A stretch of DNA of 64,000 nt from an uncultured Actinomycetes bacterium (GTDB lineage: Bacteria > Actinomycetota > UBA4738 > HRBIN12). The stretch spans positions 2,793,234 through 2,857,233 of the forward strand of contig OY969099.1 in the NCBI GenBank assembly GCA_963697875.1, in the 5' to 3' direction. The notes under the pieces were generated by a model. It saw nothing but the letters and a program-made list of their open reading frames with translations, was not told the origin of the DNA and ran no database searches. Below are positions 35,613-62,422 of the stretch, one piece after another (the first letter of the stretch is position 1; each line of letters starts with the position of its first letter). A program made the translations under genes and the position numbers.

Positions 35613-35643
35613 GGAGCAACGCTATGCCCTGTTCCACGAGGCG

Positions 35644-44141: not shown

Positions 44142-45086
44142 TCATTCGCCGCGAAACCAGGTGACCGTGCGGCGGATCCCCTCGCGGATCGGGACGCGGG
44201 GCTCGTAGCCGAGGAGCTCCCCGGCGAGCGAGATGTCGGCCTCCGAGCGCAGGATGTCGCCCTCGCGGGGCGGCGTGAACCTCGGATCCGGGGAGGCCCC
44301 GCACTCGCCCGCGATCAGCTCGAGCAGCGCCTTCACCGAGGTCGGTGTGGCGCCCCCGCCGACGTTGAAGGCCCGTCCGAACGCTTGCTCGTCCGCGCGG
44401 ATCGCGAGCAGGTTCGCGTCGACGACGTCGTCGACGTACGTGAAGTCGCGCGACTGCGACCCGTCGCCGTGGATCACCGGCCGTTCGCTCGTCAGACAGG
44501 CCACGATGAACCGCGGGACCACGGCGGCATACTCGCTCGCCGGGTCCTGCCCCGGCCCGTAGACGTTGAAGTAGCGCAGCGAGATCGTCGGGACGCGGTA
44601 GGCGGTCCACGCGGTCATCGCGTACAGCTCGGCCGACGCCTTGGCCGCCGCGTACGGCGAGCGCGGCAACACCGGCATCGTCTCCCGCAGCGGGAACTCG
44701 TCCTGATCGCCGTAGACCGAGGAGGACGACGCCTCTACCACGACGGCGCCCGCGTCGCGCGCCGCGAGCATCACGTTGAGGCTTCCGCGCAGGTTCACGT
44801 CGGTGACGAGGCCCGGTTCGCGGATCGAGAAGGGGACCGAGCGTATCGCAGCCTGGTGCAGGATCGCGTCGCAGCCGCGCGCGGCGTCGGCGACCGCCGC
44901 CTCGTCGCGCACGTCCGCTTCGACGAACCGGACCTCCGGCACGTCCCGGAGCGCCTCGAGTGATCCGGCGGACAGGTCGTCGAGGCCCACCACCTGCACG
45001 CCGTCGGCGACCAGACGGCGGCACAGGTGGGCGCCGACGAACCCGGCCGCCCCCGTCACCAGCATCCGTCGCACGTCTCGATCCAT
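44142..45086 (-). CDS. NAD-dependent sugar epimerase/dehydratase (UDP-glucose 4-epimerase family)
   Basis: MLVTGAAGFVGAHLCRRL is a Rossmann GxxGxxG. SSSSVYGD is present. YAAAKAS is the catalytic YxxxK. The start is Met 91 of track ORF 44142..45356. Confidence 0.85.
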   Translation of the reverse strand: MDRDVRRMLVTGAAGFVGAHLCRRLVADGVQVVGLDDLSAGSLEALRDVPEVRFVEADVRDEAAVADAARGCDAILHQAAIRSVPFSIREPGLVTDVNLRGSLNVMLAARDAGAVVVEASSSSVYGDQDEFPLRETMPVLPRSPYAAAKASAELYAMTAWTAYRVPTISLRYFNVYGPGQDPASEYAAVVPRFIVACLTSERPVIHGDGSQSRDFTYVDDVVDANLLAIRADEQAFGRAFNVGGGATPTSVKALLELIAGECGASPDPRFTPPREGDILRSEADISLAGELLGYEPRVPIREGIRRTVTWFRGE

Positions 45087-45217: not shown

Positions 45218-45745
45218 GTGCCGACCGAGACCGAGACCGAGACCGAGCATCGAGGCATCGATCGTCGTCAACTCCTGAAGCGGGCTGCCGCCGCGGGCGT
45301 CGTCGTATGGACCGTGCCTGCCGTCCAGACGCTGAACATGCCGGCGGCGCTCGCACAGGTCGGCTCGCCGGGCGAGACCTGTTACACGATCAAGATCCTC
45401 TCGAACTCCAGCTGCAGCTCCCCGAACGCGAACGAGAACGTGGCGTCCACGCTGAAGTGCCTCTACGCCTTCGACCCGGACCTGATCCTCCGCAACACGG
45501 GGATCGGGTGCCAGTTCGCGAAGCTCGTGTCGACCGACGTCGACGAGCTCGGGACCTGGCAGGTCAACCTCGAGCCCGGCTGTCGTCTCATTGCCGGGTT
45601 CGCGCGCTCGGGCACCGGTCAGGGTACGTGCATCCAGGCGTCCGATGCCGGCGGCGACCCGGTCGGAGAGGGCGCGACCGGTTCGATCTTCTTCCGCGGG
45701 CAGCCCGTGAACCATGTCGAGATAACGTTCTGCTGCAAGCCGTGA
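45218..45745 (+). CDS. Tat-signal secreted Cys-containing protein (paralog A)
   Basis: GGAGG lies 7 nt before GTG 45218. The N-terminus is MPTETETETEHRGIDRRQLLKRAAAAGVVVWTVPAVQTLNMPAALAQ, with a twin-arginine RRQLLK, an h-region and AxA. The mature region begins VGSPGETCY... and has about seven Cys. It is homologous to the 46950..47435 product. Confidence 0.6.
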   Translation: MPTETETETEHRGIDRRQLLKRAAAAGVVVWTVPAVQTLNMPAALAQVGSPGETCYTIKILSNSSCSSPNANENVASTLKCLYAFDPDLILRNTGIGCQFAKLVSTDVDELGTWQVNLEPGCRLIAGFARSGTGQGTCIQASDAGGDPVGEGATGSIFFRGQPVNHVEITFCCKP

Positions 45746-45752: not shown

Positions 45753-46004
45753 TCACCACACGAGCCCTCGCTCGACGTCGTCCAGCATCACGATCGCGGC
45801 CCGGTAGCGCCTCAGCAGGTCGTCGCGGTCCTGGTCGCCGATCGCCCTGAGCTCGTCCTCGGAGCATTCGGACACGATGTCTGCGGCGACGACGAGCTCG
45901 TCCCGGACCCGCCCTGCGATCGCGCGCGCCTGCACCGCAGCGGTCACGGCGCGCGCCACGGTCCTAGGCCCGCGTTCGGTTGCGTTGCCGATCGCAGCGT
46001 TCAC
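45753..46004 (-). CDS. small protein (83 aa), translationally coupled downstream of the HprK-like kinase (possible PqqD/RRE-like partner; unverified)
   Basis: ATG 46004 overlaps the kinase stop (ATGA). GC3 is high. No motif is recognised. Confidence 0.4.
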   Translation of the reverse strand: MNAAIGNATERGPRTVARAVTAAVQARAIAGRVRDELVVAADIVSECSEDELRAIGDQDRDDLLRRYRAAIVMLDDVERGLVW

Positions 46005-46873
46005 GTCGATCCGCCTCCCATCAGGTCCTCGATCAGCCGGACGGCGGCATCGAGGTTACCCACCGTCAGCCGATAGCACGCCGCGCCGCGCAGCACGCCC
46101 GCGAGGCGCTCCACGCCGCGGCCGCCGACGACCTCCAGGTTGAACGTTTGCTCCAGCAGGAGCGACAGCATCTCCGCCCGCGACACCGCGCGGAGCTCCG
46201 TGGGGGACCCCTCCTCGAACCGCGGCGCGATGATGTACCGAAGCTCGCACGGCTCGCCCAGGCACCCTGGGCGAAGCGCGCCCGGTGGGATCAGGAAGTC
46301 GAGGTTCCGCACGCGCTCGGCCCACCCGGGCAAGGACGCCCGGAGATCGGGGAACAATGCCATCGAGTCGGGCGCGAGGAGCAGCGGCCGGGTGAACGGA
46401 TACACGAGACCGTCTTGGAGCCCGATCAGCGCGGACTCGTCCGACAGGAATTCGAACCCCGTGCGGACGAGTCCTATCGTGGTCGTCGTCTTGCCGTGAT
46501 CCGGCGGCGCCGGCAGCGCAACCCCCACGCCACCCTTGCTCACGACGCCGGCGTGCACCGCGACGTGAGTAGCCACGCGCATCAATGAGGCGCGAGCGAC
46601 GTCCGCGATGACCCAGGTGAGCATCGTGCCGGGCGGGTTGCCTCGTTGCACCGACCTCCCGTTCATGAGGAGTTCGGGCTGGCCGTTCTGACCGGTGCCC
46701 AGCACTTCGTAGGTGGTGCGATGGGCAGGCGTCACGCGGGGATCGACCCAATCCGCGAACAGCGACGCCGCGGCCTCCGCTACATCGCGCGAGTCGGTGG
46801 TGACGACGAAACGGAATCCAGCCACGTGGAACGACATCGTCGACGCGACGGAACCTGGCGCCGACACGCTCAC
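46001..46873 (-). CDS. HprK-related serine kinase (HPr kinase/phosphorylase C-terminal-domain-like P-loop protein)
   Basis: THVAVHAGVVSKGGVGVALPAPPDHGKTTTTIGLVRTGFEFLSDE is an HprK-type P-loop (GxxGxGKS/T-like PDHGKTTTT) with downstream conserved blocks. The N-terminal HPr-binding domain is absent. Confidence 0.65.
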   Translation of the reverse strand: MSVSAPGSVASTMSFHVAGFRFVVTTDSRDVAEAAASLFADWVDPRVTPAHRTTYEVLGTGQNGQPELLMNGRSVQRGNPPGTMLTWVIADVARASLMRVATHVAVHAGVVSKGGVGVALPAPPDHGKTTTTIGLVRTGFEFLSDESALIGLQDGLVYPFTRPLLLAPDSMALFPDLRASLPGWAERVRNLDFLIPPGALRPGCLGEPCELRYIIAPRFEEGSPTELRAVSRAEMLSLLLEQTFNLEVVGGRGVERLAGVLRGAACYRLTVGNLDAAVRLIEDLMGGGST

Positions 46874-46949: not shown

Positions 46950-47435
46950 CTACGGGCAGTTCGCGCGCGGCGGCGAGGTGTTTACCGGCCGACCGGGCCT
47001 TCCGATCGTCACCTGGCAGTTCTCGGTACCCGAGCAGTAGAGGAAGTTCGTGAAGGGCCCCCGCTGGTAGGCGGGGAGCGCCGGATTGTGGCCTGCCCCG
47101 TTGGAGGAGTTGTACCCGCTCTGCCACTTGCACCAGTTCTCGCAGTCGTCCGCCGTGTTCTGACCGGGGTCGACGAAGGCGTCGGGTTGGCCGTAGTTCT
47201 TGACGATGTTCCCGCTGCCATCCGGCGTGTAGCAGTAGCAGGCGGAGCACTCGCCCGGGCTCGGGCCGTAGGCCGCGGCCGCTTTCATCCCGACGGTCTG
47301 GATCGTCGGGGCCGCCCAGAGCAGAGCTCCGCCCACGATCGCGGAGCGCCGCAGCAGGTCGCGTCGCGACATCCCGATCTCGGACTCCACGTCGATCGAA
47401 CGCTTCTTGGGCTCGAGCTCGTCGTCCACGGTCAC
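46950..47435 (-). CDS. Tat-signal secreted Cys-rich protein (paralog B)
   Basis: ...MSRRDLLRRSAIVGGALLWAAPTIQTVGMKAAAAYGPSPGECSACYCY... is a twin-arginine motif with signal region and an N-terminus homologous to paralog A. The mature part has about nine Cys. The start is GTG 47435 or ATG 47372. Confidence 0.6.
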   Translation of the reverse strand: MTVDDELEPKKRSIDVESEIGMSRRDLLRRSAIVGGALLWAAPTIQTVGMKAAAAYGPSPGECSACYCYTPDGSGNIVKNYGQPDAFVDPGQNTADDCENWCKWQSGYNSSNGAGHNPALPAYQRGPFTNFLYCSGTENCQVTIGRPGRPVNTSPPRANCP

Positions 47436-47549: not shown

Positions 47550-48716
47550 TCACGGCCGCGCCGCCTCGATCGCCCGCCCCACACGGTCGACGTCTTCGAC
47601 CGCCATGCCGTTCCACAACGGCAACGTGAGGGCCTGCCGCGCGGCCCGTTCGGTCTCGGGCAGGTCCGCGACGTGACCGTTCAGGTGCGCGTACGCCTTC
47701 ATCCGGTGCACCGGCGGGTGGTAGTAGCGGCGCGTCTCGATCCCCCAGGCGGCGAGCGCCGCCGCCAGCGCGTCGGCGTCGATCCCGAAGCGGTCCGGGT
47801 CGATCAAGACGGTGAGGTCCTTATAGGTGCTTCGATCGCCGTCGGGCACGACCGGGAACCGGATCCCGCCGATCCCGCCGAGGCGCTCGCGGTACCGGCC
47901 GGCGATCGCGTTGCGCTCGTCCAGCCGCTCGTCCAGGTCCTCGAACGAGGCGAGGGCCACCGCGGCGTGGAGCTCGGAGAGACGCGCGTTCAGCCCCACG
48001 AACAGGCAGTCGTAGTCGCCGGGGTTGCCGTAGTCCCGGGCGATGCGCAGGCGCTCGGCGAGCAGGTCGTCGTCGGTCGAGACCAACCCGCCCTCGGCGG
48101 CCACGAGCACCTTCGTCGGGGACATGCTGAAGACCTCGGCGTCGCCGAGCCCGCCGACCCGGACGCCGCCGGACGAGGACCCGAACGCGTGGGCGGCGTC
48201 GAAGAACAGGCGCAGGCCGTTCACGCCGGCGAGCGCCCGGAGCGCGTCGACGTCGCACGGCGTGCCGTAGACGTGCGTCGCGAGGATCGCCGCGGTGCGG
48301 GCACCGAGGACGCGGTCGACGGCCTCCGGGCTGAGGGTGAGCGTGTCGGGGTCGACGTCGGCGAACACGGGCCGCAGGCCGTTCCACGCCACCGCGTGGG
48401 CCGTGGCCGCGAACGTGAACGACGGCACGATCACGTCGCCGTCGAGCTCGGCGCACCGGAGCACGAGCATCAACCCGGCCGTGCAGGACGAGACCGCGAC
48501 CACGTGCCGGACCCCCAGGTACGCCGCGGCGGCCGCCTCGAGCCGCCGGACCGTGGGGCCGTTCGTCAGGACCCCGCTCCGCAGGATCGTCTCGACCTCG
48601 GCCGCGACGCGCGCGGGGTCGGCGAGGCGGGGGCGCGCGAGCGGCAGCGGTGTGGCCGGACCGAGCGCCGGGATGGACCGACGCGCCTGGGTGGCGTCGA
48701 GCGGGTGGGTACTCAT
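47550..48716 (-). CDS. DegT/DnrJ/EryC1/StrS-family sugar aminotransferase (PLP-dependent)
   Basis: The start is MSTHPLD (ATG 48716). ...GVLTNGPTVRRLEAAAAAYLGVRHVVAVSSCTAGL...VIVPSFTFAATAHAV...FSMSPTKVL carries the PLP-Lys motif. Confidence 0.85.
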   Translation of the reverse strand: MSTHPLDATQARRSIPALGPATPLPLARPRLADPARVAAEVETILRSGVLTNGPTVRRLEAAAAAYLGVRHVVAVSSCTAGLMLVLRCAELDGDVIVPSFTFAATAHAVAWNGLRPVFADVDPDTLTLSPEAVDRVLGARTAAILATHVYGTPCDVDALRALAGVNGLRLFFDAAHAFGSSSGGVRVGGLGDAEVFSMSPTKVLVAAEGGLVSTDDDLLAERLRIARDYGNPGDYDCLFVGLNARLSELHAAVALASFEDLDERLDERNAIAGRYRERLGGIGGIRFPVVPDGDRSTYKDLTVLIDPDRFGIDADALAAALAAWGIETRRYYHPPVHRMKAYAHLNGHVADLPETERAARQALTLPLWNGMAVEDVDRVGRAIEAARP

Positions 48717-49675
48717 CGGGGCTCCTCTCGTGGACGCGGGATCGGGCGGGCGGCCGTCAGCAGCCAACCGGTGCACGCGACGCCCGCGCCGGCCGCCGCG
48801 GCGAGGGCCGACGCCGGCTGGAGCCGGGCGACCGCCTGCGCACCGAGCGCGAGGAGCGCGCCGCAGGCCCAGCAGGCGAGCGTCGAGGCTGTCCGGCTCC
48901 CGAGCGCCTCGGCCAGCCGGTCGTACGCGTGCTCGCGGTCGCCGAGGACGGCCGGAGCCGACGACCACCGCCGCCGGACCACCGTGGACGCCAGCTCGAC
49001 GAGGAAGAAGCCGAGGCACACCGCCGCCGCGAACAGGCCCGGCCAGTCGGTCGCCGCGGTGGCCGAGGCGACCACCAGGAGCACGCCGAGTGCGTAGGCG
49101 CCTCCGTCTCCGAGGAACGCGCGCGCCGGAGGGCGGTTCCACGCCAAGAACCCGAGCGCCGCGCCGGCGGTTGCTGTGGCCACCGCCGTCGACATTCCGG
49201 CCGCGGCCGCGACCCCGGCGAGGCCGGCCGCAGCGAACGCTCCCAGCCCGGTCGCCAACCCGTCCTGACCGTCGACCATGTTCACCGCGTTGCAGGCGGC
49301 GACGGTCGCGATCACGACCGCGACGCCACCGAGCGGGCCGAGCGGCGCGAACGTGAGGCCGCCGGCCGCGAGGCACACCCCCGCGAGCACCTGCGCGGCG
49401 AGCCGGATCCACGGCGAGATCGGACGGATGTCGTCCACCAAGCCGGCGGCGAGCGCCACGACCACGGCGACCACGAACCACATCCGGCGCTCGCCGCCGA
49501 GCCACGGCCACGCGCCGGCCAGCGCGCCGGCCGCGACCGCCGCCCCGGCGAGCGCCACGGGCCTCGCGTGCAGCTTCAGCGCGCCCGGCCGATCCACCAG
49601 ACCGAGCCGCGGCCCGACGCGGACGAGCACCGCCGTCCCGACCAGCGAGACGGCGAGCGCGATCACGAACGGCAC
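48713..49675 (-). CDS. polyprenyl-phosphate N-acetylhexosamine-1-phosphate transferase (WecA/TagO/MraY GT4-PNPT family); initiating transferase
   Basis: Ten TM helices are present. DDIRPISPWIRL is a motif of the family. NAVNMVDGQDGLA is the NxxNxxDGxDGL active site. The stop overlaps the aminotransferase start. Confidence 0.85.
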   Translation of the reverse strand: MPFVIALAVSLVGTAVLVRVGPRLGLVDRPGALKLHARPVALAGAAVAAGALAGAWPWLGGERRMWFVVAVVVALAAGLVDDIRPISPWIRLAAQVLAGVCLAAGGLTFAPLGPLGGVAVVIATVAACNAVNMVDGQDGLATGLGAFAAAGLAGVAAAAGMSTAVATATAGAALGFLAWNRPPARAFLGDGGAYALGVLLVVASATAATDWPGLFAAAVCLGFFLVELASTVVRRRWSSAPAVLGDREHAYDRLAEALGSRTASTLACWACGALLALGAQAVARLQPASALAAAAGAGVACTGWLLTAARPIPRPREEPR

Positions 49676-51423
49676 GACGCCACCCAGACGGTGCTCTCGA
49701 CGCCGTCGTGCACGGCGATCGTGCCGACCCGCTCGAACCCGAGCGCGGCGTAGAAGGCGTTCGCCCCGTCGTTGTCGGCGCCGACGACCGCCTTGCAGCG
49801 ATCGGCCCCGCGACGCGCCAGGCCTGACAGGACCGCCCCCGCGAGGGCGCGGCCGGCCCCGGTCCCCCGGGCCCGCTCGTCGACCGCGATCGCCAGCAGC
49901 TCCGCGTCGGGAAGGTCGGCGCGCCGGCCGGGGTAGCGGGCGGTCTCGCCGGCGCGTGCGCGGACCGACGCATCCCGAAGGCGCGGCGCGGCCGCGAGGG
50001 CCGCCCGGACGCCCCGCCGGAACGCGAACCGACGGTAGAAGGCGCCGAGCGATGGCACGCCGGACGCGAACCCCAGCACCTCACCCCCCCGCTCGGCGAC
50101 GAACACCGTGGCGGCGCGATCGCCGATCAGCCCGGCGTGCAGCTGCGTGAGGAACCGCGCCCCGAGCCAGGGCAGGAACGCCGTGGGCATCGTCGCGATG
50201 TGCAGCCGCGCGATCGCCCGGGCGTCCGATCGCCGCGCCGGCCGTACGACCGTCGCGTCCCGGTTCCCCCGGACGATCCCCCTGGCTCGCAGCAGGCGCT
50301 CGGTGACGCCGACAACCGTGGCGACCACCCGCTCCTGGTCGAACTCGGCCTCGGCCCGGCGCCTCGCGGCCGCGCCCATCCTCCGTCGCAGTGCGCCGTC
50401 CTCCAGGACCCGGACGAGCGCCGAGGCCAGCGCGCCCGCGTCGCGGACCGGCACGAGCAGCCCCTGCACGCCGTCGGTCACGACCTCCCGGCAGCCGCGG
50501 ATGTCGGTGAGCACGAGCGGAAGCCCGCTCGCCGCGGCCTCGATCGCCGAGCGCGGCATCCCCTCGCGCCACGACGGCAGCGCGAACACGTCCATCACGG
50601 CCATCAGCTCGGCCACGTCCTCGCGCCACCCCGTGAACACCACGTCCTTGCTCGCCGCCTCGATCTCGGCGGCCTCGATCGCGTCGGGCTTATCCGGGTC
50701 ACCCTGCCCGACCACGAGGAACCGCGCCGCGGGCACCCGCGCCCGGACCCGACGCGCCGCCTCGAACAGCTCGAGGAAGCCCTTCTCGCGAACCATCCTC
50801 CCGACGGTCCCGACGACCAGCTCGTCCTCGCCGATCCCGAGCTCGGCGCGGAGCTTCCGCGCCGCCTCCGAGCCGGCGCGCTCGGGCGCGAACCGCGCCA
50901 CGTCGATCCCGTTGCCCAGCTGGATCGCCCTGCCGCGGCGGACGACCCGCAGGCGTCGCGCCCACGCGAGGTCCTCTCCCGACTGGTACAGCTCGAGGTC
51001 CGAGCAGCGGGATGCGAGCGCCTCCACCGCCAGGACCGGCCCGCGCTTCCCGAGCCGGTCCTCCGGCGTCGCCCAGAGCCCGTGGACCGTGTTCAGCACG
51101 ACCGGCACGCCGAGCAGGCGGGCGGCCACGCGCCCCATCGCGCCGGGCTTCGGGTTGTGCGTGTGGACGGCGTTGAACCGCTCGCGCCGGAGGATCCGGA
51201 CCAGCTCGCGGAGGGCCCGCACGTCCGCCCGCGGGTTCCACGCCCGCGTCACGGTCGTCCACGCCACGTACCGGATCCCCTCGGCCTCGACGTCGCCGAC
51301 CCACGGGCCCGGCGCGCCGATCGCCGTCACGTCGTGCCCCTTCTCGCGGAGCCCCACGAGCTGCGGCAGCAGCAGGAACCGGTGCGTCAGGTCGACCGTG
51401 GCCACGTGTGCGATCTTCGCCAT
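49663..51423 (-). CDS. bifunctional glycosyltransferase family 4 with a C-terminal GNAT N-acetyltransferase domain
   Basis: The start is MAKIAHVATVD (ATG 51423). The GT4 domain is ...GRMVREKGFLELFEAA...FALPSWREGMPRSAIEAAASGLPLVLTDIRGCREVV.... The reading frame then continues uninterrupted into the GNAT fold ...VFVAERGGEVLGFASGV...LLAIAVDERARGTGAGRALAGAV...GANAFYAALGFERVG. Confidence 0.75.
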   Translation of the reverse strand: MAKIAHVATVDLTHRFLLLPQLVGLREKGHDVTAIGAPGPWVGDVEAEGIRYVAWTTVTRAWNPRADVRALRELVRILRRERFNAVHTHNPKPGAMGRVAARLLGVPVVLNTVHGLWATPEDRLGKRGPVLAVEALASRCSDLELYQSGEDLAWARRLRVVRRGRAIQLGNGIDVARFAPERAGSEAARKLRAELGIGEDELVVGTVGRMVREKGFLELFEAARRVRARVPAARFLVVGQGDPDKPDAIEAAEIEAASKDVVFTGWREDVAELMAVMDVFALPSWREGMPRSAIEAAASGLPLVLTDIRGCREVVTDGVQGLLVPVRDAGALASALVRVLEDGALRRRMGAAARRRAEAEFDQERVVATVVGVTERLLRARGIVRGNRDATVVRPARRSDARAIARLHIATMPTAFLPWLGARFLTQLHAGLIGDRAATVFVAERGGEVLGFASGVPSLGAFYRRFAFRRGVRAALAAAPRLRDASVRARAGETARYPGRRADLPDAELLAIAVDERARGTGAGRALAGAVLSGLARRGADRCKAVVGADNDGANAFYAALGFERVGTIAVHDGVESTVWVASCRS

Positions 51424-52169
51424 CAGCCCTTCCCCCACGGTCCCCGTCCGAGCGCGCGGTAGACCCACGCCTCGGTGTCCAGCTGCCCGGCCGCCTTCCG
51501 CCGGAAGAAGAAGTCCCCGTCGGAGCGCAGCACCGGCACCCGCCCCAGCCGGTACCGGTCGGTTCGGCCGGCGCGGTTCGTCCGCCACGCGTCCCGGGCG
51601 GCCGAGACGAACAGCCGCCGCGCAGCGCGGTCGGCGGCGGCCCCGCCGACGGCCCAGGGGTACGCGAAGTGCCGGCACGCCGCGCCGAGCCGGTCCTCGA
51701 TCAGGTCCCGGGACCGCCGCATCTCCGCGTCCGCCTGTTCCTCGCTCACGTCCGCGAGGTTCGCGTGCGAATGGGTGTGCGACCCGACCTCCACGAGCCC
51801 GCTCGCGACGCACTCCCCCAGCTGCCGCCACGTCAGCCCGTCGCCGCCGACCCCGCCGGTGGCGAGGTACAGCAGCGCCGGTACCCGGTGCCGCTCCAGC
51901 AACGGCAGCGCGCGCTCGGCGAAGTCGGGCGTCCCGTCGTCGAACGTGACCACCACTCCGCCGCGGCCGGCGAGCGCCTCGTCCAGCGTGATCGCGTGTG
52001 GCGCCACGTGCGCGAGCTGCCGGTCGAGCACGTCCTCGGGCAGCTCGATCTCCGAGGTCCCGTCGCCGACCCGGTGGTACAGCAGGATCACGACGTCGTC
52101 CGCCGCGCGCCGACCGGGCAGCCCGAACGGCAGCACCGCCGCCTTCGAGAGGGTCCGGACCGCGCTCAC
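51423..52169 (-). CDS. polysaccharide deacetylase (NodB/CE4 family)
   Basis: GTG 52169 overlaps the upstream stop (GTGA). ...VVILLYHRV..., ...VVVTFDDGTPD... (the DD metal motif) and ...GSHTHSH... are CE4 blocks. Confidence 0.7.
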   Translation of the reverse strand: MSAVRTLSKAAVLPFGLPGRRAADDVVILLYHRVGDGTSEIELPEDVLDRQLAHVAPHAITLDEALAGRGGVVVTFDDGTPDFAERALPLLERHRVPALLYLATGGVGGDGLTWRQLGECVASGLVEVGSHTHSHANLADVSEEQADAEMRRSRDLIEDRLGAACRHFAYPWAVGGAAADRAARRLFVSAARDAWRTNRAGRTDRYRLGRVPVLRSDGDFFFRRKAAGQLDTEAWVYRALGRGPWGKG

Positions 52170-53221
52170 TCCCACCCGTCCTCGCGCCGCGGCACGAGCG
52201 CCGTCCCGAACAGTGCGGCCACGACCAGCACCACGGCCGGCGTGTGCAGCACGTAATCGACGCAGGCGTGCGCCCCGACAACCGCGACCGCCGCCGCGCC
52301 GAGCGCGGTCACCGCGTCGGGGCGAGGCACGGCCAGGAGCCGTACGAAGGCCCACCCGAAGACCGCGACCATCAGGAGCAGGCCCAGGACGCCGAGCTCC
52401 GCGCCGCGCTCGAGGAACTCGTGGTGCGCCTGGAACGCGTCGCGGTCCGAGCGGGCCGTCGGGCTCACCCGGGCGAACGTCCCGAGCCCGTTGCCGCGCG
52501 GCTCGGCCGTCGTCGCGTCCCACGCGTCGTGCCACAGGGCCAGTCGGCGTTCGGTGAGCCCCGCGTCCACCAGGCGTTCGGCGACCCCGGTCGGGCCGGC
52601 CGTGGGGTCGTACGTAGCCGCGAGCCAAACCGTCGCCGAAAGCGAGACCACGAACACGGCGGCCATCGCCGCGATCGCTACGCGCGAGGCCCGCGGACCC
52701 ACGAGCGCGATCGCGAGCGCCACGAACGCCAGCCCGACCACCGCCGCCGCCTCGGCGCTTCGGACCGCGACCGCCGAGGGCGCCAGCGCCACGGCGACCG
52801 TCACCACGATCGCCGGCCACCGCCGGAGCGCGCCGCCCGTCATCAGCCACGCAACCGCGGCCGCCGCCAGGAACGCCCCGCTCGCGTTCCGGTAGCCGAA
52901 CGGTCCGCCGAGCGGCCCGGTCGTCAGGTCGAGCCGCCATCGCCACGCGAACCAGGTCGCGCCCACCGCGACGACGGCCGGCACCAGCGCCCGGTGCGTC
53001 CGCGCGCCGACAACCGCCGAGACGACGACCACCCCGGCGACGGCGCCGAGCAGCGCCACGAACGACCCCGCGTCGGTCCCGGTGCGGAGCCCCACGAGCA
53101 GGGCCACGAGCGCCAGCGCGCCCACCAGCACGAGGCCGGCCACGTCCAGCCCCGGCCGGAGCTCCTCGTGGACCCGCGTCGTGACGACGGCCCGGTCACG
53201 CCAGCGGCTCAGCGCCTGCAT
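52166..53221 (-). CDS. O-antigen ligase/polymerase-like (Wzy_C domain) polytopic membrane protein
   Basis: About ten TM helices are present, with a large loop containing ...RNGLGTFARVSPT...AHHEFLERGAELGVLGLLLMVAVFG, which is Wzy_C-like. Confidence 0.6.
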   Translation of the reverse strand: MQALSRWRDRAVVTTRVHEELRPGLDVAGLVLVGALALVALLVGLRTGTDAGSFVALLGAVAGVVVVSAVVGARTHRALVPAVVAVGATWFAWRWRLDLTTGPLGGPFGYRNASGAFLAAAAVAWLMTGGALRRWPAIVVTVAVALAPSAVAVRSAEAAAVVGLAFVALAIALVGPRASRVAIAAMAAVFVVSLSATVWLAATYDPTAGPTGVAERLVDAGLTERRLALWHDAWDATTAEPRGNGLGTFARVSPTARSDRDAFQAHHEFLERGAELGVLGLLLMVAVFGWAFVRLLAVPRPDAVTALGAAAVAVVGAHACVDYVLHTPAVVLVVAALFGTALVPRREDGWE

Positions 53222-54569
53222 GCTCCACCTCCCGTACCTCGGGGTGCCGCTCCCACCACACGGGCGTGGGAACCGCCAGCAGCACCAGGAAGAACGGCAG
53301 CACCTGCGAGCGCTGCCGCGCGAGGATCCCGAAGTTCGCGATGCTCGAGAACCCGAACACGAACACCGCCACGAACACGATCGCCACGGCCACGTAGGGC
53401 TGCCGGCGGATCGACGTCGCGGCCTCCCAGATCCACCGCCACCGCCAGACCGACCACGCGAGCAGCGCCGTCCCCTCGAGCGCCGCGAGGAACCCCTGGA
53501 CGTTCTTCGCCTCCGGAAGCAGCGGCCGGAAGAGCACCGTCACAGCCGCGAGCGGCGCGCGCGTGGGGCTGTCGAGCACCGACGCCTGGAACGACGAGCC
53601 GCCCTGCTGGGTGCGGAACTCCGTGTTCTGCAGCGTCGCGCTCACGCCGCCCTCGTCGTTCACCCCCGCCTGCGCCAGGAAGTCGTTCGTCATCCGGACG
53701 AGGAAGAGCGTCCCGACCGCGAGCGCCGCGAGCACGGCGACCTTCGCGAGGAGCCCGACCTCGCGGTGCTCGGGCCGCGTCGGCCGCACCACGTACCCGG
53801 CCACCGTCGCGATCGCGACCATCGCCGCGATATGGGGCCGGACGACCGCGAGCGCCGCCACGCCCAGCACCACCGGCAACGCGGCGCCCCTGATCCCGGT
53901 CGTCAACAGCCGCGCGATGCCGAACGCCGCGAGCCCCAGCCCGAAGAGCATCCATGCCTCCTTGCCGACGCTCGACGGCCAGAACAGCAGCGACGGCATG
54001 AAGAAGACGAGCCGCGCGTACGTGCGACGGCGGCCCTCCGGGACCGCGATCGCGAACGCCCGATAGAAGAGGAAGAGGCCCCAGAACGCGATCCACGAGA
54101 AGACGAGGAAGGCCCCGACCTGGGTCGGCCACGTGAACGAGTAGACGACCCCCGTCAGGAGACCGGGGAACCCGGTCCCGGTGACGCTGCCCGTCATCGT
54201 GAAGTCGAGGCGATGGAACCGCGCCGCGAACGACGTGCCTTCCTGCAGGTACCGCGCCGCGTCGGCCACCCCCCCGTAGACGCCGAACGCGACGTAGTAG
54301 CGGGCGAGCGATGCGCCGAGCTTCAGCAGCAGGGCCCAGACCAGGATCGTGAACACGCGCGGCTCGTCCTCGCGTGCCGCCTGGCGCCGGAGCGCCGGCA
54401 GCGACACGAGGATCAGGACCGGCGCCACGAGCACCGCGCCCCACGTGTCGTACGTGGACCGATCCATAAGGAGCAAGAGCCAGGCGCTGAGCCCGGCGAG
54501 GAGCGCGAGCCACAGCAGCCCGAGGGGCTGCGTCCGGATCAGGAGTCTGCGGTCGGCAGTGGTCGCCAC
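53196..54569 (-). CDS. polytopic membrane protein (12 or more TM helices), candidate glycan polymerase or flippase
   Basis: The hydrophobicity pattern shows 12 or more TM helices. No soluble catalytic motif is present. The gene sits inside the glycan cluster and overlaps both neighbours. Confidence 0.5.
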   Translation of the reverse strand: MATTADRRLLIRTQPLGLLWLALLAGLSAWLLLLMDRSTYDTWGAVLVAPVLILVSLPALRRQAAREDEPRVFTILVWALLLKLGASLARYYVAFGVYGGVADAARYLQEGTSFAARFHRLDFTMTGSVTGTGFPGLLTGVVYSFTWPTQVGAFLVFSWIAFWGLFLFYRAFAIAVPEGRRRTYARLVFFMPSLLFWPSSVGKEAWMLFGLGLAAFGIARLLTTGIRGAALPVVLGVAALAVVRPHIAAMVAIATVAGYVVRPTRPEHREVGLLAKVAVLAALAVGTLFLVRMTNDFLAQAGVNDEGGVSATLQNTEFRTQQGGSSFQASVLDSPTRAPLAAVTVLFRPLLPEAKNVQGFLAALEGTALLAWSVWRWRWIWEAATSIRRQPYVAVAIVFVAVFVFGFSSIANFGILARQRSQVLPFFLVLLAVPTPVWWERHPEVREVEHAGAEPLA

Positions 54570-54570: not shown

Positions 54571-55587
54571 TCAGAACACCTCCAGGTCCCCGAGCGCGAG
54601 CGCCCACGACGACGCGCGCAGCGGATCGACCGGGATCGGGCGGAGCGGGTTTGCCACGAGGGTCAGCCCCTCCGGCGACGGCAGGAACCCGGCCCGGCGC
54701 ACTGCGCGACGAGCCTCGGACCCGGGCGGGAAGCTGCACGTGACGTGGTCGGCCGCCGCCGCCCCGACGGCCGCGCGCAACGCTCCGCGCACCGACCGCA
54801 CGTCGCCCGGCGCCGCGAAGACTTCCGCCACCGTCGTCTCCCAGAGCCGCCCGCGCGGCCGAACGCGGAAGATCGCGATCGCGTCCGGGCGTGACCGGTT
54901 GCCCAGTGCGACCGCCCGGTAGTCCAGGAGCGGTGCCTCCCCGTACCGCCACCGGAGGTACTCGACGGAGCGGTCCGTCACGAGCCGCCCGGCCTCAGCC
55001 GCGGGGAGCAGCGGCGCCACGGCGTCGCCGTCGGCGAGCAGGGAGCCGGCCGGCGGTGCGGACACCGTCGGCGCGGTGCCCGCGTCGGCGTGCAGCTCGT
55101 CACGCGACCGCATCCCTCTCGCGAAGCGGAGCGGCCGGCGGATCCGGACCTCGATCGGCACGTCGGCGATCCGCCGCCATCCCATCTTCAGGTAGCCGGC
55201 GAGGCTCTGGTCGTTCGGCGTGTTGAAGACCAGGTCGGTGTCCGCGCGGAGCTCGTCGACCGCCGAGAGCGTCAACCGCCGAAAGATCCCCTGCCCCTGG
55301 TAATCGGGGTGCGTCGCGGTATCGACGGCCCGCACCGCCGAGACCGGCTTCCCGTCCACGAGGAACCGCCACCGCATGAAGGTCCGGAACCCGACGACGC
55401 GGTCGCCGTGCTCGGCCAGGATCGCGAACGACCGACCGAACGGGTTCGACGCGTGCTTCCACCGGAAGAACGCCGGCGAGCGGCTGCCGGCCGGGCCGCC
55501 GCCGAGCGACGCGTCGAGCAGCCCGAGAACCGCCGCCTCGTCCTCGTCGCGGTAGGGCCGCACGTCCAATGCGATCCGAAGGCTCAT
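54571..55587 (-). CDS. GNAT-family acetyltransferase (FemAB-like double-GNAT possible)
   Basis: ...FAILAEHGDRVVGFRTFMRW..AVDTATHPDYQGQGIFRRLTLSAVDE... is a GNAT core. The protein is about 338 aa, allowing two GNAT-like halves. Confidence 0.6.
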   Translation of the reverse strand: MSLRIALDVRPYRDEDEAAVLGLLDASLGGGPAGSRSPAFFRWKHASNPFGRSFAILAEHGDRVVGFRTFMRWRFLVDGKPVSAVRAVDTATHPDYQGQGIFRRLTLSAVDELRADTDLVFNTPNDQSLAGYLKMGWRRIADVPIEVRIRRPLRFARGMRSRDELHADAGTAPTVSAPPAGSLLADGDAVAPLLPAAEAGRLVTDRSVEYLRWRYGEAPLLDYRAVALGNRSRPDAIAIFRVRPRGRLWETTVAEVFAAPGDVRSVRGALRAAVGAAAADHVTCSFPPGSEARRAVRRAGFLPSPEGLTLVANPLRPIPVDPLRASSWALALGDLEVF

Positions 55588-56690
55588 GCCAGCACCTCTC
55601 CGTACACCTGCTCGATCCGTCGGACGGCGACGCGGATGTCGAACTCGGCGGCACGCGCGCGGCCCGCCTCGCCGAGATGGGCGCGGAGCGCGGGGTCGTC
55701 CAGCAGCCGGACGATCGCGGCCGCGAGCGCCCGATCGTCGGCCGGCGGCACGACCAGTCCCTCACGGTCGTCCCGTACGACCTCGCCGAGCCCGCCGACG
55801 TCGGGCACCACCGCCGGCCGGCCGAGTGCGAGCGCCTCGATCAGCGCGATCGAGAGCCCCTCGTGCTCGGAGGACAACGCGAACACGTCGAACGCCGCGG
55901 CCAGCCGCTGCGCGTCCTGGCGGAACCCCAGGAACAGCACCGTCCCGTCGAGACCCATCCGTGTCGACATGTGCCGCAGCTCGTCCTCGAGCTGCCCAGA
56001 CCCGACGAGGAGGAACCGGACGTCGGGGTACTCGGCGCGGACGATCGTCGCCGCGTGGAGCAGCCGGTCGATGCGCTTGTGCTCCTTCAGGTTCGCGACG
56101 GTCCCGACGATCGGCGCGCCGGCCGGGATCGCGAGCTCCTCGCGGACCCCGTCGGCTTCGCCCTGCCCGCGGACGGCCTCCAGGTCGATCCCGTGGTAGC
56201 GCGTCTCGACCGGCGGCCTCGGCAGGGCCCGCAGCGCACCGGGGAGGACGATCGAGTCCCGGACGTGATCGGAGACGGCGAGCACACGGTCGCTCCGCCA
56301 AAAGGTGAGCGCGTTCGCCCAATACGTGGCCGGGTGGTAGCGCTCCCACACGTTGTGCTCGGTGTAGACGCGTCGCGGCCGGGCACCCCAGCAGGCGAGC
56401 CGCGCCCCGACCGCCGGCACCGGTGACTGCGCGTGGATCAGGTCGATCCGCTGCTCGCGGACGAGCGACCGCAGACGCGGCACCCACCCGATCCCACGCC
56501 CGCCCTGCAGGCAATGCACCGGTACGCCCTGGTCCGCGATCTCCTTCACGAAGGCGTCCTTCCACGGCAGGAGGTAGGCGACCTCGTAGTCGAATCGGGT
56601 CCGGTCGAGGTGCGGGATTGAGCTGGCGAGGATCTGCTCCGCTCCTCCCCGGCCGAGGCCCTTGATGAGGAGGAGGACTCGATGCCTCAT
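55584..56690 (-). CDS. glycosyltransferase family 4
   Basis: The start is MRHRVLLLIKGLGRGGAEQ (ATG 56690, overlapping the upstream stop as ATGA). ...FALSSEHEGLSIALIEALALGRPAVVPDVGGLGEVV... is the EX7E region. Confidence 0.8.
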   Translation of the reverse strand: MRHRVLLLIKGLGRGGAEQILASSIPHLDRTRFDYEVAYLLPWKDAFVKEIADQGVPVHCLQGGRGIGWVPRLRSLVREQRIDLIHAQSPVPAVGARLACWGARPRRVYTEHNVWERYHPATYWANALTFWRSDRVLAVSDHVRDSIVLPGALRALPRPPVETRYHGIDLEAVRGQGEADGVREELAIPAGAPIVGTVANLKEHKRIDRLLHAATIVRAEYPDVRFLLVGSGQLEDELRHMSTRMGLDGTVLFLGFRQDAQRLAAAFDVFALSSEHEGLSIALIEALALGRPAVVPDVGGLGEVVRDDREGLVVPPADDRALAAAIVRLLDDPALRAHLGEAGRARAAEFDIRVAVRRIEQVYGEVLA

Positions 56691-57793
56691 CGTCCCGCGG
56701 CGACCTCCTCGTAGACCGCCAGGTACCGGGCGGCGATCGCCCTGATGTCGAACGCGCTCGCGTGCGCCGGCGCCTCGGCACGGATCCGCGCCACGAGGTC
56801 CCGGTCGTCGAGCAGTCGGCCGGCGGCATCGGTGAGCGCGTCGACGTCGCCGTGCGTCACGAGCAGGCCGCTTCGACACGGGCAGACGACCTCCCCGATC
56901 CCGGCCACGTCGTAGCCGGCAAGGGGGAGTCCGAGCATGGCCGCTTCGATAGCTACGGCCGGCATCCCCTCCATCCCGTCCGGCCGGCTCGCGAACAGCA
57001 GGACGTCGCTCGCCGCGATCAGGTCGCCGACGTCCCGGCGTGATCCGAGGATCCGCGTCACCTGCGGATCGGCCGAGATGAGCACCTCGCCACGCTTCGG
57101 CCCGTCGCCGGCCATCAGATGGACCAGGCCGGGTCGCGTCGCCGCCAACCGCCGCGCGACCTCCACGTGAACCAGCGGATCCTTCTCCCAGCTCAGCGCG
57201 CCGATCGAGAGCACGACCGGGACCTCCGGATCGATCCCGAGCGCCGAACGGACCTCCTCCCGGGAGCGCCGCGGCGCGATCCGAGCGCGATCCACGCCGT
57301 TCGGAATCGTGACGACCTTCTCCGGCTCCAGCCCGAACTCCTCGATCGTCTCCTCGCGGAGCCGGTCGGCGACGGCGACGACCCGTGCGGCGCGTCGCAT
57401 CACCCTCCTGTAGAGGCCGCGGAGAACTCGGCTGCCGAGCTGCGGAGGTGATCCGCCTATCCGCCGATAAACGATCCGCGTTCCTCGTGAAGCTATCGAG
57501 GAGTACTTCAGGGCTTCACCCCCGTGCGCCTGGATCACGTCTGGCTCGAGCTCGGCCACGAGCGACCGAAGCCGAACCCCGGGGGTCTGAAGTGCCGCAC
57601 GCGACACCTTCGCCGGCATCACCTGGTGGGTGGGCGCTTCGAACGAGAGCTCCTGTGGACCCGATCGGAGAATAGCGACCGCCTGCTGTCCTCCGCCCCG
57701 CGCGATCTCGCCGACCAGGTCGGCCGCGAATACCTCGGCGCCGCGACGTCGTCCCGACGCTACGACGTGGAGCACGCGCCCCTGATCATTCAT
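56687..57793 (-). CDS. glycosyltransferase family 4
   Basis: MNDQGRVLHVVASGRRRGAEV... and ...LFASRPDGMEGMPAVAIEAAMLGLPLAGYDVAGIGEVV... are GT4 patterns. Confidence 0.8.
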   Translation of the reverse strand: MNDQGRVLHVVASGRRRGAEVFAADLVGEIARGGGQQAVAILRSGPQELSFEAPTHQVMPAKVSRAALQTPGVRLRSLVAELEPDVIQAHGGEALKYSSIASRGTRIVYRRIGGSPPQLGSRVLRGLYRRVMRRAARVVAVADRLREETIEEFGLEPEKVVTIPNGVDRARIAPRRSREEVRSALGIDPEVPVVLSIGALSWEKDPLVHVEVARRLAATRPGLVHLMAGDGPKRGEVLISADPQVTRILGSRRDVGDLIAASDVLLFASRPDGMEGMPAVAIEAAMLGLPLAGYDVAGIGEVVCPCRSGLLVTHGDVDALTDAAGRLLDDRDLVARIRAEAPAHASAFDIRAIAARYLAVYEEVAAGR

Positions 57794-58937
57794 ATTGCGC
57801 GTGCTCTAGGTGTTCGCTATGCCGCGCGATAGCTTCATCGACCAACGCCTCGAATCGGCGCGTGACGGTCCCGGGGTCCAGCTCGTCGCGTCGGCTGTGC
57901 TCCATCGCGCGTGCCGAAAGTTCTTCATACCTCGACTCGTCATCCCAGACCTCTGCAAGGGCGCGGATCCACCCGTCGAGCGGCGCGCCCGGGTCGACCA
58001 GGACCCCTCCGCCGCCGACCGATTCCGGCAGCCCCCCCAAAGCGCTCGTGATGCTCGGGATCCCGTTGACTTGCGCCTCCGAGACGACCCGACACCAGGC
58101 TTCCTCATCCATGCTCGGGACCAAGACCAACCGGCAGTCCCCGTACAGCTCCCCGGGATCGCTCGTCGCCGGGCGAACCTCCATGTTGCCGAGAGCGCGT
58201 GCCCGCTCGCGCACGTCACGGAGCGCGCCTCGCCTCATCCGCCAGCTCAGCCGGATCACGAACGGGATGTCGCGCCGCGCCGACGCGATACCGAAGGCGA
58301 TCTCGATCCCCTTCCGCGGGGTCGGGTTCACGAACAACACCTTCTCGCGTCGAGTTTGAACCTCGTACGTGGACCTGGGGAAGAGAGATGGGAGGAACGT
58401 CGCCTCACGCCCAGCGAGATGGACACATCGCGCTGTGAAGGAAGAGTTCGCGATCACGACATCGGCGTGGATCGTCGATCCGGCCGCTTCGGCAGATCTA
58501 GCGTCCCTCACGTAAAGGATGCTGGGGCGATCGGTCGTCGCGTTGAGGCAGGCTCGCGCGAATCGAGGATCTCCACAGGTCACGACCACGACGTCGGCCG
58601 CAGTCTCGCTGGCAACGGCCCCGACCGCCGCAACCGGGTCGTGCACACGCCTCGTCGGGTATCCGAGCGACAGGTCGAGGCGAGGAGCAAGACGGCGGCC
58701 GAGGCCGTCAGCCGCCCAGGCCAGCGAACCAGCAAGCGATCTCCTTGGGAGGCGTGTCAAGACGGACACCTCGTCCCCTGCTGCTTGGAGACAAGCCGCG
58801 AGATGGTGGGTACTGACCTCCGACCCGCCCACGTAGGGCAGATGGTTCTTGCCGACGAACAGCACGCGACGCGCAGGTAGCTCAGCGCGCCGACGCGTCT
58901 CGACGTCTGAGATCGCGGAACGACGGGCCGTCATCAT
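57786..58937 (-). CDS. glycosyltransferase family 4
   Basis: VLFVGKNHLPYVGGSEV... and ...LVPSMDEEAWCRVVSEAQVNGIPSITSALGGLPESV... are GT4 patterns. The local GC is lower than in the core. Confidence 0.75.
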   Translation of the reverse strand: MMTARRSAISDVETRRRAELPARRVLFVGKNHLPYVGGSEVSTHHLAACLQAAGDEVSVLTRLPRRSLAGSLAWAADGLGRRLAPRLDLSLGYPTRRVHDPVAAVGAVASETAADVVVVTCGDPRFARACLNATTDRPSILYVRDARSAEAAGSTIHADVVIANSSFTARCVHLAGREATFLPSLFPRSTYEVQTRREKVLFVNPTPRKGIEIAFGIASARRDIPFVIRLSWRMRRGALRDVRERARALGNMEVRPATSDPGELYGDCRLVLVPSMDEEAWCRVVSEAQVNGIPSITSALGGLPESVGGGGVLVDPGAPLDGWIRALAEVWDDESRYEELSARAMEHSRRDELDPGTVTRRFEALVDEAIARHSEHLEHAQYE

Positions 58938-60067
58938 CGCCCCACCTCAGAGGTCGGCCTCTGCGAGAGCGCGTCGACCGCATCCTGCCAGATAACCGAC
59001 CACCTCAGATCTGCCACCGCATCCCGATTGGCGATACCCGCGTCAACGGCACGCGACCTGTCAGCCAGGTATCCGGTGACTGCTTGGGCGAACGGCTCCG
59101 GGTCGTCGCACACGCGGAGGCCCGTCGATCCGGCGATGCCGGCGGCCGCCCACGATGTGGCGACGACAGGACGTGAGGACGCCATCCCCTCGACCACCTT
59201 GATCTTCGTGCCCCCGCCGCCGAACAAAGGAGCCACGACGACCGTTGCTGCCTCGTACTCGGGCACGAGAGAACGAACGAACCCGGAGTACGACACAGAG
59301 TTGTCGCCTCGTCCGTTCCACCCTGGACCGACGACGCGGAGCCGAGCGCCGGGAACGCGCTCCCGAACCGTCGGCCAGACCATGTTCACGAACCAGTCCA
59401 GACCGGACCGGTTCGCCGCGTAGTTCCCGGGACCGACGAAGAGACAGACGGATGCGCCGTTGGACGGCGGGCTGACCGACCACAACTCGTCGGTGGCACC
59501 GTTCGGGATCGTCCGCGCGGTGAGGTTCGGTAGGGACCTGGTGAGCCGCAAGCGCTCTTCCTCCGATACGAACCAGGCCTCGTCACATCGACGGAGGACG
59601 CGCTGCTGCCAACGCGCGTACTTCATGGCCGACAGCCGTGTCGAAACCCGAGCGATCCACGGGGTGCTCAAAGCTGCAAGCGACCCCAACCGTGCGGCGT
59701 CGTCGTCGTGGAGGACCACGATCCGTCGCGAAGTGTCGAGCCTCAGCGCTGCCGGCCAGACCGCGGTGGTCTCCGCCTGGACGACGTCGTACGTTCCCCG
59801 AAGGTCTCCGCGGGCTCGATCGACGTTCCATGCGAGCGGGGGGTCCGCGGATAGGTGGCAGCGCACCGGATGCGGTCGAACCTCGATGTCGACATAGCCA
59901 TCTAGCAGCGATGCCTCTTCCTGGGTCAGGGGGTGCTCGTGCCTCCGTCGGAAGTGGTACACGTCGACCTCGAAACCGGCACCCTTGTAGTAGCGGAGCA
60001 TGGCGGTCACGCGCGTTGCGAACCCCGTCCCCCGAAGCGACCGGGCGACGACAATCGCGACCCTCAC
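58934..60067 (-). CDS. glycosyltransferase family 4
   Basis: ...VVAPLFGGGGTKIKVVEGMASSRPVVATSWAAAGI... is a GT4 C-terminal domain. Confidence 0.7.
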   Translation of the reverse strand: MRVAIVVARSLRGTGFATRVTAMLRYYKGAGFEVDVYHFRRRHEHPLTQEEASLLDGYVDIEVRPHPVRCHLSADPPLAWNVDRARGDLRGTYDVVQAETTAVWPAALRLDTSRRIVVLHDDDAARLGSLAALSTPWIARVSTRLSAMKYARWQQRVLRRCDEAWFVSEEERLRLTRSLPNLTARTIPNGATDELWSVSPPSNGASVCLFVGPGNYAANRSGLDWFVNMVWPTVRERVPGARLRVVGPGWNGRGDNSVSYSGFVRSLVPEYEAATVVVAPLFGGGGTKIKVVEGMASSRPVVATSWAAAGIAGSTGLRVCDDPEPFAQAVTGYLADRSRAVDAGIANRDAVADLRWSVIWQDAVDALSQRPTSEVGR

Positions 60068-62168: not shown

Positions 62169-62422
62169 GATGTTGGTGTCTTCTCGTTTGAACGTAGGTC
62201 CGTCCAGGCTCCTTCGAACACGACGGGTCCCAGTTCGGCTCCAATCGCATCCAGGTGGGCAGCCTCGAAAGCGACGGAGCGATCCAATTTCCCGGGGTCG
62301 ACGATCGCGCCCTCGACCGACAATGCGCAGATCACGGGGAAGTACGCACCCGGCCGCAGAGAGAGATTCTCAATCCGCCAACGCACCATTCGAGCATGCA
62401 TTCGGCTTTCGATCGGCTTCAT
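62147..62422 (-). CDS. small hypothetical ORF (91 aa) coupled to the upstream hydrolase gene
   Basis: The start overlaps the hydrolase stop. No motif is recognised. Confidence 0.25.
   Translation of the reverse strand: MKPIESRMHARMVRWRIENLSLRPGAYFPVICALSVEGAIVDPGKLDRSVAFEAAHLDAIGAELGPVVFEGAWTDLRSNEKTPTSWVAGSD

Follow-up and report, generated by a model that had tools for sequence, protein, structure and literature searches.

WaaL transfers glycans en bloc in lipopolysaccharide (LPS) synthesis, and many Wzy_C proteins of exopolysaccharide and capsule loci have been assigned a polymerase role, e.g., the Caulobacter holdfast polymerases, which act together with the HfsH deacetylase. In Actinomycetota, the protein glycosylation described is O-mannosylation of the PMT type, and LCP enzymes attach the wall polymers; we know of no previously described oligosaccharyltransferase (OTase)-type O-glycosylation system in this phylum. 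Here, a Wzy_C gene located at 52166-53221 (-) is described in a 64,000-nucleotide stretch of DNA from an uncultured Actinomycetes bacterium (GenBank assembly GCA_963697875.1, contig OY969099.1, positions 2,793,234 to 2,857,233), referred to below as the window. Its 351-amino-acid (aa) product is a compact membrane transferase of the WaaL fold (GT-C(B) class) and belongs to an undescribed conserved actinobacterial module which also includes a new GT-C family and a dedicated twin-arginine (Tat) signal protein. Our tentative reading is that the enzyme is a ligase of a lipid-linked glycan to a non-protein envelope acceptor.

The characterised protein O-OTases PglL, PglS, TfpO (PilO) and TfpM all come from Gram-negative bacteria (PMC12645811, PMC9829042). 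The sequence-only reading of this DNA had proposed that the Wzy_C protein may be an enzyme of this kind and that Actinomycetota are not known for OTase-type systems; the literature on bacterial O-OTases and actinobacterial glycosylation surveyed here describes none either, which is an absence and not a proof. The protein belongs to the same superfamily, and in the profile alignment PglL residues R298, H349, N180, H400, and E404 (PMC3643930) have aligned counterparts in its family. Cognate acceptors are often encoded near PglS, TfpO, and TfpM (PMC12645811), and genes of possible acceptors are present in the cluster described here. The differences from this group are that PglL_A/Wzy_C_2-type domains are missing, that the protein is ~250 residues shorter than PglL, and that there is no pilin acceptor. 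A position outside polysaccharide or LPS loci has been used as a criterion for the PglL/PglS type (PMC3643930), whereas this gene lies in the middle of a glycan-assembly operon.

WsaB and WsfB, the predicted surface-layer (S-layer) O-OTases of Geobacillus and Paenibacillus (PMC2943079), resemble the present system by description: they are Gram-positive, have a Wzy_C domain, use a lipid-carrier glycan, and are accompanied by Wzm/Wzt export and an Asn-synthase homologue (PMC2943079). However, no S-layer gene or TPR partner was found here, the window lacks Wzm/Wzt, and the acceptors of WsaB/WsfB are S-layer proteins, while the candidate acceptors here are Cys-rich Tat-signal proteins of 110-175 aa. 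For a ligase acting on a non-protein acceptor, the closest functional model would be TacL of Streptococcus pneumoniae, a ~400-aa Wzy_C protein which ligates a polyprenyl-diphosphate-linked polymer to a membrane glycolipid (PMC5727136). The likeness is one of described function, and TacL differs in that no teichoic-acid genes are present here. WaaL (Cupriavidus metallidurans 7TPG/7TPJ; E. coli) is larger, about 400-420 aa, and the E. coli protein has almost no sequence similarity to the profile of our family (8.6 bits). The WaaL acceptor is presumably missing, as the carriers are Actinomycetota and the surroundings showed no genes for the LPS core or lipid A; the gene therefore lacks the LPS context of WaaL sensu stricto. 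Wzy_C-type and SEDS (RodA/FtsW) polymerases differ in that there are no Wzx/Wzz partners here and the ligase-type His motif is conserved.

The G+C content of the window is high (0.62-0.77), so genes were picked by third-position G+C, which reaches 0.94 in the Wzy_C open reading frame (ORF). The same 351-aa product (L084 9453-10508) was called independently on a Logan contig of 18 kb that is identical in sequence and ends within the window. The ATG start codon is supported by the N-terminus MQ(A/T)LSRWRDRAVV, kept in the closest homologues. PF04932 is the sole Pfam match (E 6.6e-11, 42.6 bits at a cut-off of 31.7) and was matched by 39/39 aligned family members, and the protein, recognised in the sequence-only reading as O-antigen-ligase-like, is a genuine membrane enzyme of that type. 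An NCBIfam scan gave no family for this protein, for its GT-C neighbour or for the GNAT protein of the same cluster. Fifty relatives were obtained from a search of 5.8 billion proteins, nearly all of them 320-380 aa long, and the taxon-labelled ones all belong to Actinomycetota. The best match in a scan of species-representative genomes has 46% identity.

According to hydropathy and an AlphaFold model (pLDDT 91, pTM 0.90), the protein has 10 transmembrane (TM) helices and both termini in the cytoplasm. The model places a single outward loop of ~65 residues (204-267) after TM helix 7, as in the polytopic WaaL-type fold. This loop holds an R-x3-W motif and an H-x10-G motif, both invariant. Residues P107, Y110, R226, W230, P241, G243, F249, A256, D259, D261, H266, L270, E275, G277, and G339 are invariant in the alignment of 39 sequences. 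R226 and H266 align with matching residues of the WaaL structure 7tpg and of 9rmk, an OTase structure, and H266 aligns with H338 of E. coli WaaL. The two residues thereby correspond to the Arg and His of demonstrated importance in E. coli WaaL (R288, H338) and in PglL (R298, H349) (PMC3643930). The conserved Arg and His expected of such an enzyme are thus present, while no equivalent of the third WaaL Arg (R215) could be assigned. The combination of fold, motifs and outward loop favours an enzyme that acts on a glycan linked to polyprenyl diphosphate, on the outer side of the membrane.

Single-sequence searches of PDB with the Wzy_C or the GT-C protein returned nothing useful, and the PglL and WaaL structures were reached only with the Wzy_C family profile. 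This profile had two matches: 9rmk, a 610-aa "oligosaccharyltransferase" (E 4.4e-8, 35.9 bits), at the top, and 7tpg (E 8.2e-7, 31.7 bits). The numbering of 9rmk fits Neisseria PglL, with Q178, N180, H400, and E404 placed as reported (PMC3643930). A profile comparison of the large periplasmic loop with PglL/PilO versus WaaL/Wzy had been recommended in the sequence-only reading; with the family profile, PglL-numbered 9rmk came out ahead of WaaL by only ~4 bits. In the profile alignment to PglL, N112 corresponds to N180, H318 to H400 and D322 to E404; the position of Q178 is occupied by Tyr, P406 has no counterpart, and G316 and G318 are not resolved. Against E. coli proteins, the profile scored 8.6 bits with WaaL, 2.1 with the O16 Wzy (WbbH) and -1.2 with WzyE, i.e., there is no similarity to the two polymerases among these E. 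coli comparators. On the scores against the PDB entries and E. coli WaaL, WbbH, and WzyE, we assign the protein to the WaaL/PglL branch of the superfamily and not to classical enterobacterial Wzy. PglL_A (PF15864) and Wzy_C_2 (PF11846) were found in 0/39 family members even at E up to 10, and the protein has no TPR or large extracytoplasmic domain.

The Wzy_C gene lies inside a glycan-assembly cluster. Minus-strand genes with overlapping or abutting starts and stops run from 57793 down to 47550 in the order GT4, GT4, GNAT, 457-aa membrane protein, Wzy_C, CE4 deacetylase, GT4::GNAT, WecA-type, DegT. The start of the deacetylase gene (51423-52169 (-); PF01522, E 2e-22) overlaps the Wzy_C stop (GTGA); its product has no signal peptide, is predicted to be cytoplasmic and also weakly matches NodB, HfsH, and PgaB. 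It is followed by a 586-aa fusion of a GT4-type glycosyltransferase with a C-terminal GNAT domain (49663-51423 (-); PF13692, PF00534, PF00583), which is kept in related loci. The putative initiator, a 320-aa WecA/MraY-family polyprenyl-phosphate N-acetylhexosamine-1-phosphate transferase (48713-49675 (-)), matches PF00953 with E 1.4e-26, as expected from the sequence-only reading, and TIGR02380 with E 1.3e-16, under the cut-off of that model. A DegT/DnrJ/EryC1 sugar aminotransferase (47550-48716 (-); PF01041, E 1e-99) ends this run of genes. An NAD-dependent sugar epimerase/dehydratase (PF01370, E 1.5e-61) is encoded further on at 44142-45068 (-); its longest ORF extends to 45356, but the Pfam domain begins at residue 98 of that ORF. 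Upstream of Wzy_C and the 457-aa protein, there are a 338-aa GNAT (Acetyltransf_9) protein (54571-55587 (-); PF13527, E 1.1e-10; syntenic in related loci) and two GT4-type glycosyltransferases (55584-56690 and 56687-57793 (-); PF00534, PF13439). Domain annotation adds three more GT4-type glycosyltransferases (57786-58937, 58934-60067 and 61035-62168, all (-)) and a sulfotransferase (60064-61047 (-)), and the cluster continues beyond the end of the window. All cluster elements listed in the sequence-only reading are therefore present, but it had missed the 457-aa protein.

The 457-aa membrane protein (53196-54569 (-)) belongs to a family with >650 homologues for which there is no dedicated Pfam entry. 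It is predicted to have the GT-C(A) glycosyltransferase fold of the PMT/OST type, and its first outward loop holds a conserved acidic residue. The end of its gene overlaps the Wzy_C start by 26 nt, and the two genes are adjacent in most related loci, although L015 and some other loci apparently have Wzy_C without the GT-C gene. Judged by the modelled fold, this neighbour would be an equally good candidate for protein glycosylation as the Wzy_C enzyme.

Comparison of the window proteins with 82 fetched loci (designated by L numbers) by tblastn revealed the same module in about 30 loci of uncultured Actinomycetota: GT4 - GT4 - GNAT - GT-C - Wzy_C - deacetylase - GT4::GNAT - (Asn synthase) - WecA - DegT - small protein - HprK-like - epimerase. 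The order is identical on Pfam-annotated contigs reached from either the Wzy_C or the GT-C side, and all full-module carriers are metagenome-assembled genomes (MAGs) of Actinomycetota. Few genes of the module diverge as strongly as Wzy_C, with 37-47% identity vs 55-70% for its neighbours. One MAG (MFD10007.bin.2.82) has four module copies (L025, L028, L032, L041), of which only L041 was matched in the small-protein motif search; L025 and L028 look nearly identical and may be strain variants. Another MAG has two copies (L004, L030).

Natural fusions of Wzy_C with the CE4 deacetylase were found in three metagenome proteins (P0033, P0037, P0047) and at L002 3390-5237. In P0033 and P0037, no extra TM helix separates the last Wzy_C helix from the CE4 domain. 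As the C-terminus of Wzy_C is predicted to be cytoplasmic, these helix-free fusions place the deacetylase on the cytoplasmic side, probably as a component of a membrane complex. A periplasmic location was considered and rejected, since a signal peptide is missing and the CE4 domain of P0033 and P0037 comes after the cytoplasmic C-terminus with no additional helix.

Export genes were searched for in both the window and its relatives. Co-oriented Wzm/Wzt genes are located 6-10 kb upstream in eight related loci, often beside a sulfotransferase. With these Wzm/Wzt proteins as queries, tblastn against the window found only a 91-aa ORF (62147-62422 (-), called as a gene on L084) that resembles the ATPase of the ABC exporter, Wzt, in its C-terminal domain alone (E 4e-8; 37.5% identity across 88 aa), and no Wzm or Wzt nucleotide-binding domain. 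We take this ORF for a remnant or for a glycan-binding module that stands alone. No Wzx (MOP) flippase or chain-length regulator was found in the annotated parts of the window, and no Wzx flippase, chain-length regulator or LCP ligase in six Pfam-annotated loci. A Pfam scan of ten ORFs from 15.6-36.8 kb gave no MOP or ABC-2 genes. LPS-core, lipid A or other LPS genes were absent from the annotated window parts and annotated loci; the LPS or classical Wzx/Wzy context that would have spoken against protein glycosylation was thus looked for and not found.

Two small Cys-rich proteins with a Tat-type signal are encoded at the distal end of the cluster: one of 161 aa (46950-47435 (-); 159 aa in the Logan gene call), and one of 175 aa with another type of mature domain (45218-45745 (+)), which scores 17.4 bits against TIGR01409 (TAT-signal; cut-off 16.7) and has homologues in L007, L021, and L037. 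The two exported proteins of the sequence-only reading are real ORFs, and in each of them a twin-arginine motif (S/D-RR-x-LL-[KR]) is accompanied by a stretch of mild hydrophobicity and an AxA-like site. Their description as lying next to the Wzy_C gene holds only in the sense of the same cluster, as they are 4.7-6.9 kb downstream of it with four to six genes in between. The two families have the Tat-like N-terminal region in common, while the mature parts vary. In an alignment of 11 members, this region (SRRDLLRRGAIVGGTLLWAAPAIQS) is much more conserved than the Cys-rich mature part, and a motif search with it matched only small-protein genes of this cluster type, where their place is directly after DegT. 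An [S/T]-containing, mostly [S/T]-P, segment stands right before the first mature Cys in all 11 aligned proteins, and six of them end with Ser or Thr. The combination of a conserved leader and a variable Cys-rich core resembles modified-peptide precursors.

Small-protein genes are present in L001, L004, L007, L008, L013, L017, L018, L021, L026, L030, L037, L039, L041, L085, L086, and L090-L092. By our own tally, the small protein is found in 16 of about 23 related loci extending past DegT, and roughly one third of the covered loci have Wzy_C without it. All three contigs retrieved starting from the small protein place its gene directly after DegT, and the whole module is visible on one of them. 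The linkage of the small protein to the cluster is not a coincidence of one genome. A candidate acceptor nearby, as expected for a protein O-OTase, is therefore present, which is linkage and no proof of an acceptor role.

The small proteins adjoin not the Wzy_C gene but a gene for a 290-aa P-loop protein similar to HprK-related kinase A (46001-46873 (-); TIGR04352, E 1.5e-33, below cut-off), which is located between them. Matches to it were found by tblastn in ~15 related loci, some of them weak (identity down to 27%). The pairing with a kinase and the Tat-type signal suggest that the small proteins undergo modification, maturation or cofactor loading in the cytoplasm. We found nothing relevant in the literature on HprK-related kinases in polysaccharide loci. 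An 83-aa ORF (45753-46004 (-)), called as a gene on the Logan contig, has no homologue among the related loci; it was considered as a PqqD-type partner of the kinase, with no support. Some related loci also carry an NTP_transf_5 nucleotidyltransferase (L083) or a ScmC-like protein (L086), which are also known from the surroundings of modified-peptide systems.

Gene models, domains, folds, motifs, topology, operon structure and synteny were established directly, and from them we infer all of the chemistry, including donor, acceptor and direction of transfer, as well as how the glycan is exported in this organism and what the kinase may do. In the proposed pathway, the Wzy_C enzyme would carry out the last extracytoplasmic step of conserved actinobacterial envelope-glycan synthesis. 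The epimerase/dehydratase and DegT would produce an amino sugar nucleotide, and the WecA-like enzyme would start the chain on polyprenyl phosphate. At the cytoplasmic face, six GT4 enzymes would lengthen the chain, the cytoplasmic CE4 deacetylase and GNATs would swap N-acyl groups, and the sulfotransferase would decorate or cap the glycan. The lipid-linked product would be exported by Wzm/Wzt in related loci and perhaps by another route in this organism. Outside the membrane, R226 and H266 would bind the diphosphate and activate an acceptor hydroxyl, so that the finished polyprenyl-diphosphate-linked heteroglycan is moved en bloc to an envelope acceptor by the Wzy_C enzyme and polyprenyl diphosphate is released. 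The adjacent GT-C enzyme would use a polyprenyl-phosphate donor to attach or alter a sugar.

Sequence, fold and context are compatible with transfer to a protein, with transfer to a lipid or wall component, and with polymerisation. We consider an en-bloc ligase likelier than a polymerase because of Wzm/Wzt in relatives, the lack of Wzx/Wzz, the invariant ligase-type His motif and the TacL precedent. As a conservative choice, a membrane glycolipid or some other non-protein component associated with the wall would be the likeliest acceptor. Several points weigh against this. No gene for the synthesis of a glycolipid anchor was identified; a lipid or wall acceptor leaves the regular presence of a small exported protein in the cluster unexplained; no exporter or flippase was found in the window, so the ABC-dependent route is extrapolated from relatives; and the best PDB sequence match is a protein O-OTase (9rmk), not WaaL. 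In addition, several paralogous clusters occur in some genomes, each with its own fast-diverging Wzy_C (L025, L028, L032, L041), which is more typical of glycan-specific polymerases than of ligases, usually promiscuous and single-copy. This glycan-specific pattern speaks for a Wzy-type polymerase joining polyprenyl-diphosphate-linked repeat units outside the membrane, as do the strong divergence of Wzy_C relative to its neighbours, the embedding of its gene in a glycan-assembly operon where it does not stand alone, the weakly HfsH-like deacetylase and the fold in common with SEDS polymerases. Nevertheless, we regard a polymerase as somewhat unlikely: neither a Wzx flippase nor a chain-length co-polymerase is present in any Pfam-annotated locus, the exporter in eight related loci makes an external polymerase unnecessary, the H-x10-G motif is of the ligase type and invariant, and the profile is not similar to E. 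coli Wzy or WzyE.

Protein O-glycosylation, with the Wzy_C enzyme moving the lipid-linked glycan en bloc to Ser/Thr of the small Tat-exported Cys-rich proteins, is likewise somewhat unlikely in our estimation. The small proteins would then be dedicated acceptors, like pilins (TfpO, PglS) or S-layer proteins (WsaB, WsfB). Their conserved linkage to the module (16 of about 23 loci and 3/3 contigs), the [S/T] segment before the first Cys (11/11), the Ser/Thr end (6/11), the slightly better profile match to PglL-numbered 9rmk (E 4.4e-8) and three PglL-type residues are all consistent with this, as is the frequent encoding of cognate acceptors near TfpO, TfpM, and PglS. The absence of PglL_A and Wzy_C_2 from all 39 members, together with the lack of a TPR or large extracytoplasmic domain, counts against an O-OTase, but TfpO and TfpM also lack the two domains, so their absence is not excluding (PMC12645811). 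Gram-positive S-layer loci do combine Wzm/Wzt, a Wzy_C O-OTase and an Asn-synthase homologue (PMC2943079). On the other hand, about one third of the covered loci, including the extra paralogous clusters of one MAG, have no small protein; the kinase pairing and the Tat-type signal point to cytoplasmic modification or cofactor loading; the PglL-vs-WaaL difference is only ~4 bits; and if the small proteins are glycosylated, the PMT/OST-fold neighbour is an equally good candidate. The original O-OTase proposal thus stands in part, as regards the superfamily, the initiator and the conserved link to an exported protein, and falls short in the missing PglL_A/Wzy_C_2 domains and the short loop of ~65 residues. 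It is quite improbable that Wzy_C is a mere partner of the GT-C enzyme, priming, trimming or scaffolding for this true final transferase, or that it has an undescribed activity. The gene overlap of 26 nt, the adjacency in most loci and the membrane complex suggested by the fusions with a cytoplasmic deacetylase would fit a partner role, while the invariant catalytic Arg and His positions argue for catalysis, and loci such as L015 apparently have Wzy_C without the GT-C gene.

In this conserved operon, a WaaL-fold transferase is encoded together with a member of a new GT-C family and a dedicated exported protein, which points to an envelope glycoconjugate pathway undescribed in the phylum. If the acceptor is a lipid or the wall, a new route to a lipoglycan or wall polymer, comparable to that of TacL, would be defined for actinobacteria. 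If it is a protein, OTase-type O-glycosylation would extend to Actinomycetota and the compact 351-aa enzymes may be of use in glycoengineering. We think it unlikely that the module forms a dedicated en-bloc protein glycosylation system of uncultured Actinomycetota, in which a sulfated, N-acyl-edited heteroglycan would be assembled on polyprenyl diphosphate, exported and transferred to a small Cys-rich Tat protein by the WaaL-fold enzyme together with the previously unrecognised GT-C family, after processing of the protein by the HprK-like kinase in the cytoplasm before Tat export; were this so, the product would be an envelope component resembling a proteoglycan, and the system the first of the OTase type that we know of in this phylum. 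In either case, the 457-aa GT-C family and the pair of Tat protein and HprK-like kinase are concrete testable subjects.

Some further features are located in or near the cluster. A large secreted protein of ~650-700 aa, which combines a Pro/Ser-rich linker with a G8/CEMIP beta-helix-like domain, is repeatedly encoded close to the module (L004, L005, L008, L021, L022, L032, and L083 17974-19929) and could be a glycan-active enzyme or a further candidate glycoprotein. A sulfatase and an extra GT4 gene are located elsewhere in the window (34182-36747 (-)), and ATP-sulfurylase genes lie near related clusters (L091 18359-19525, L092 12776-13522). Together with the sulfotransferases of the clusters, the sulfatase and ATP-sulfurylase genes point to a sulfated glycan. 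Within the one gene cluster, the G+C content drops from ~0.75 (48-54 kb) to ~0.62 (about 60000-64000), which suggests that the distal part of the locus is a mosaic or was exchanged recently; GT4 genes, the sulfotransferase gene and two genes for alpha/beta-hydrolases (62419-63363, 63321-63938) fall in the low-G+C stretch. An apparently unrelated gene at 28788-31631 (+) codes for a 947-aa protein with a zinc ribbon, an adenylate/guanylate cyclase domain, an AAA ATPase and TPR repeats.

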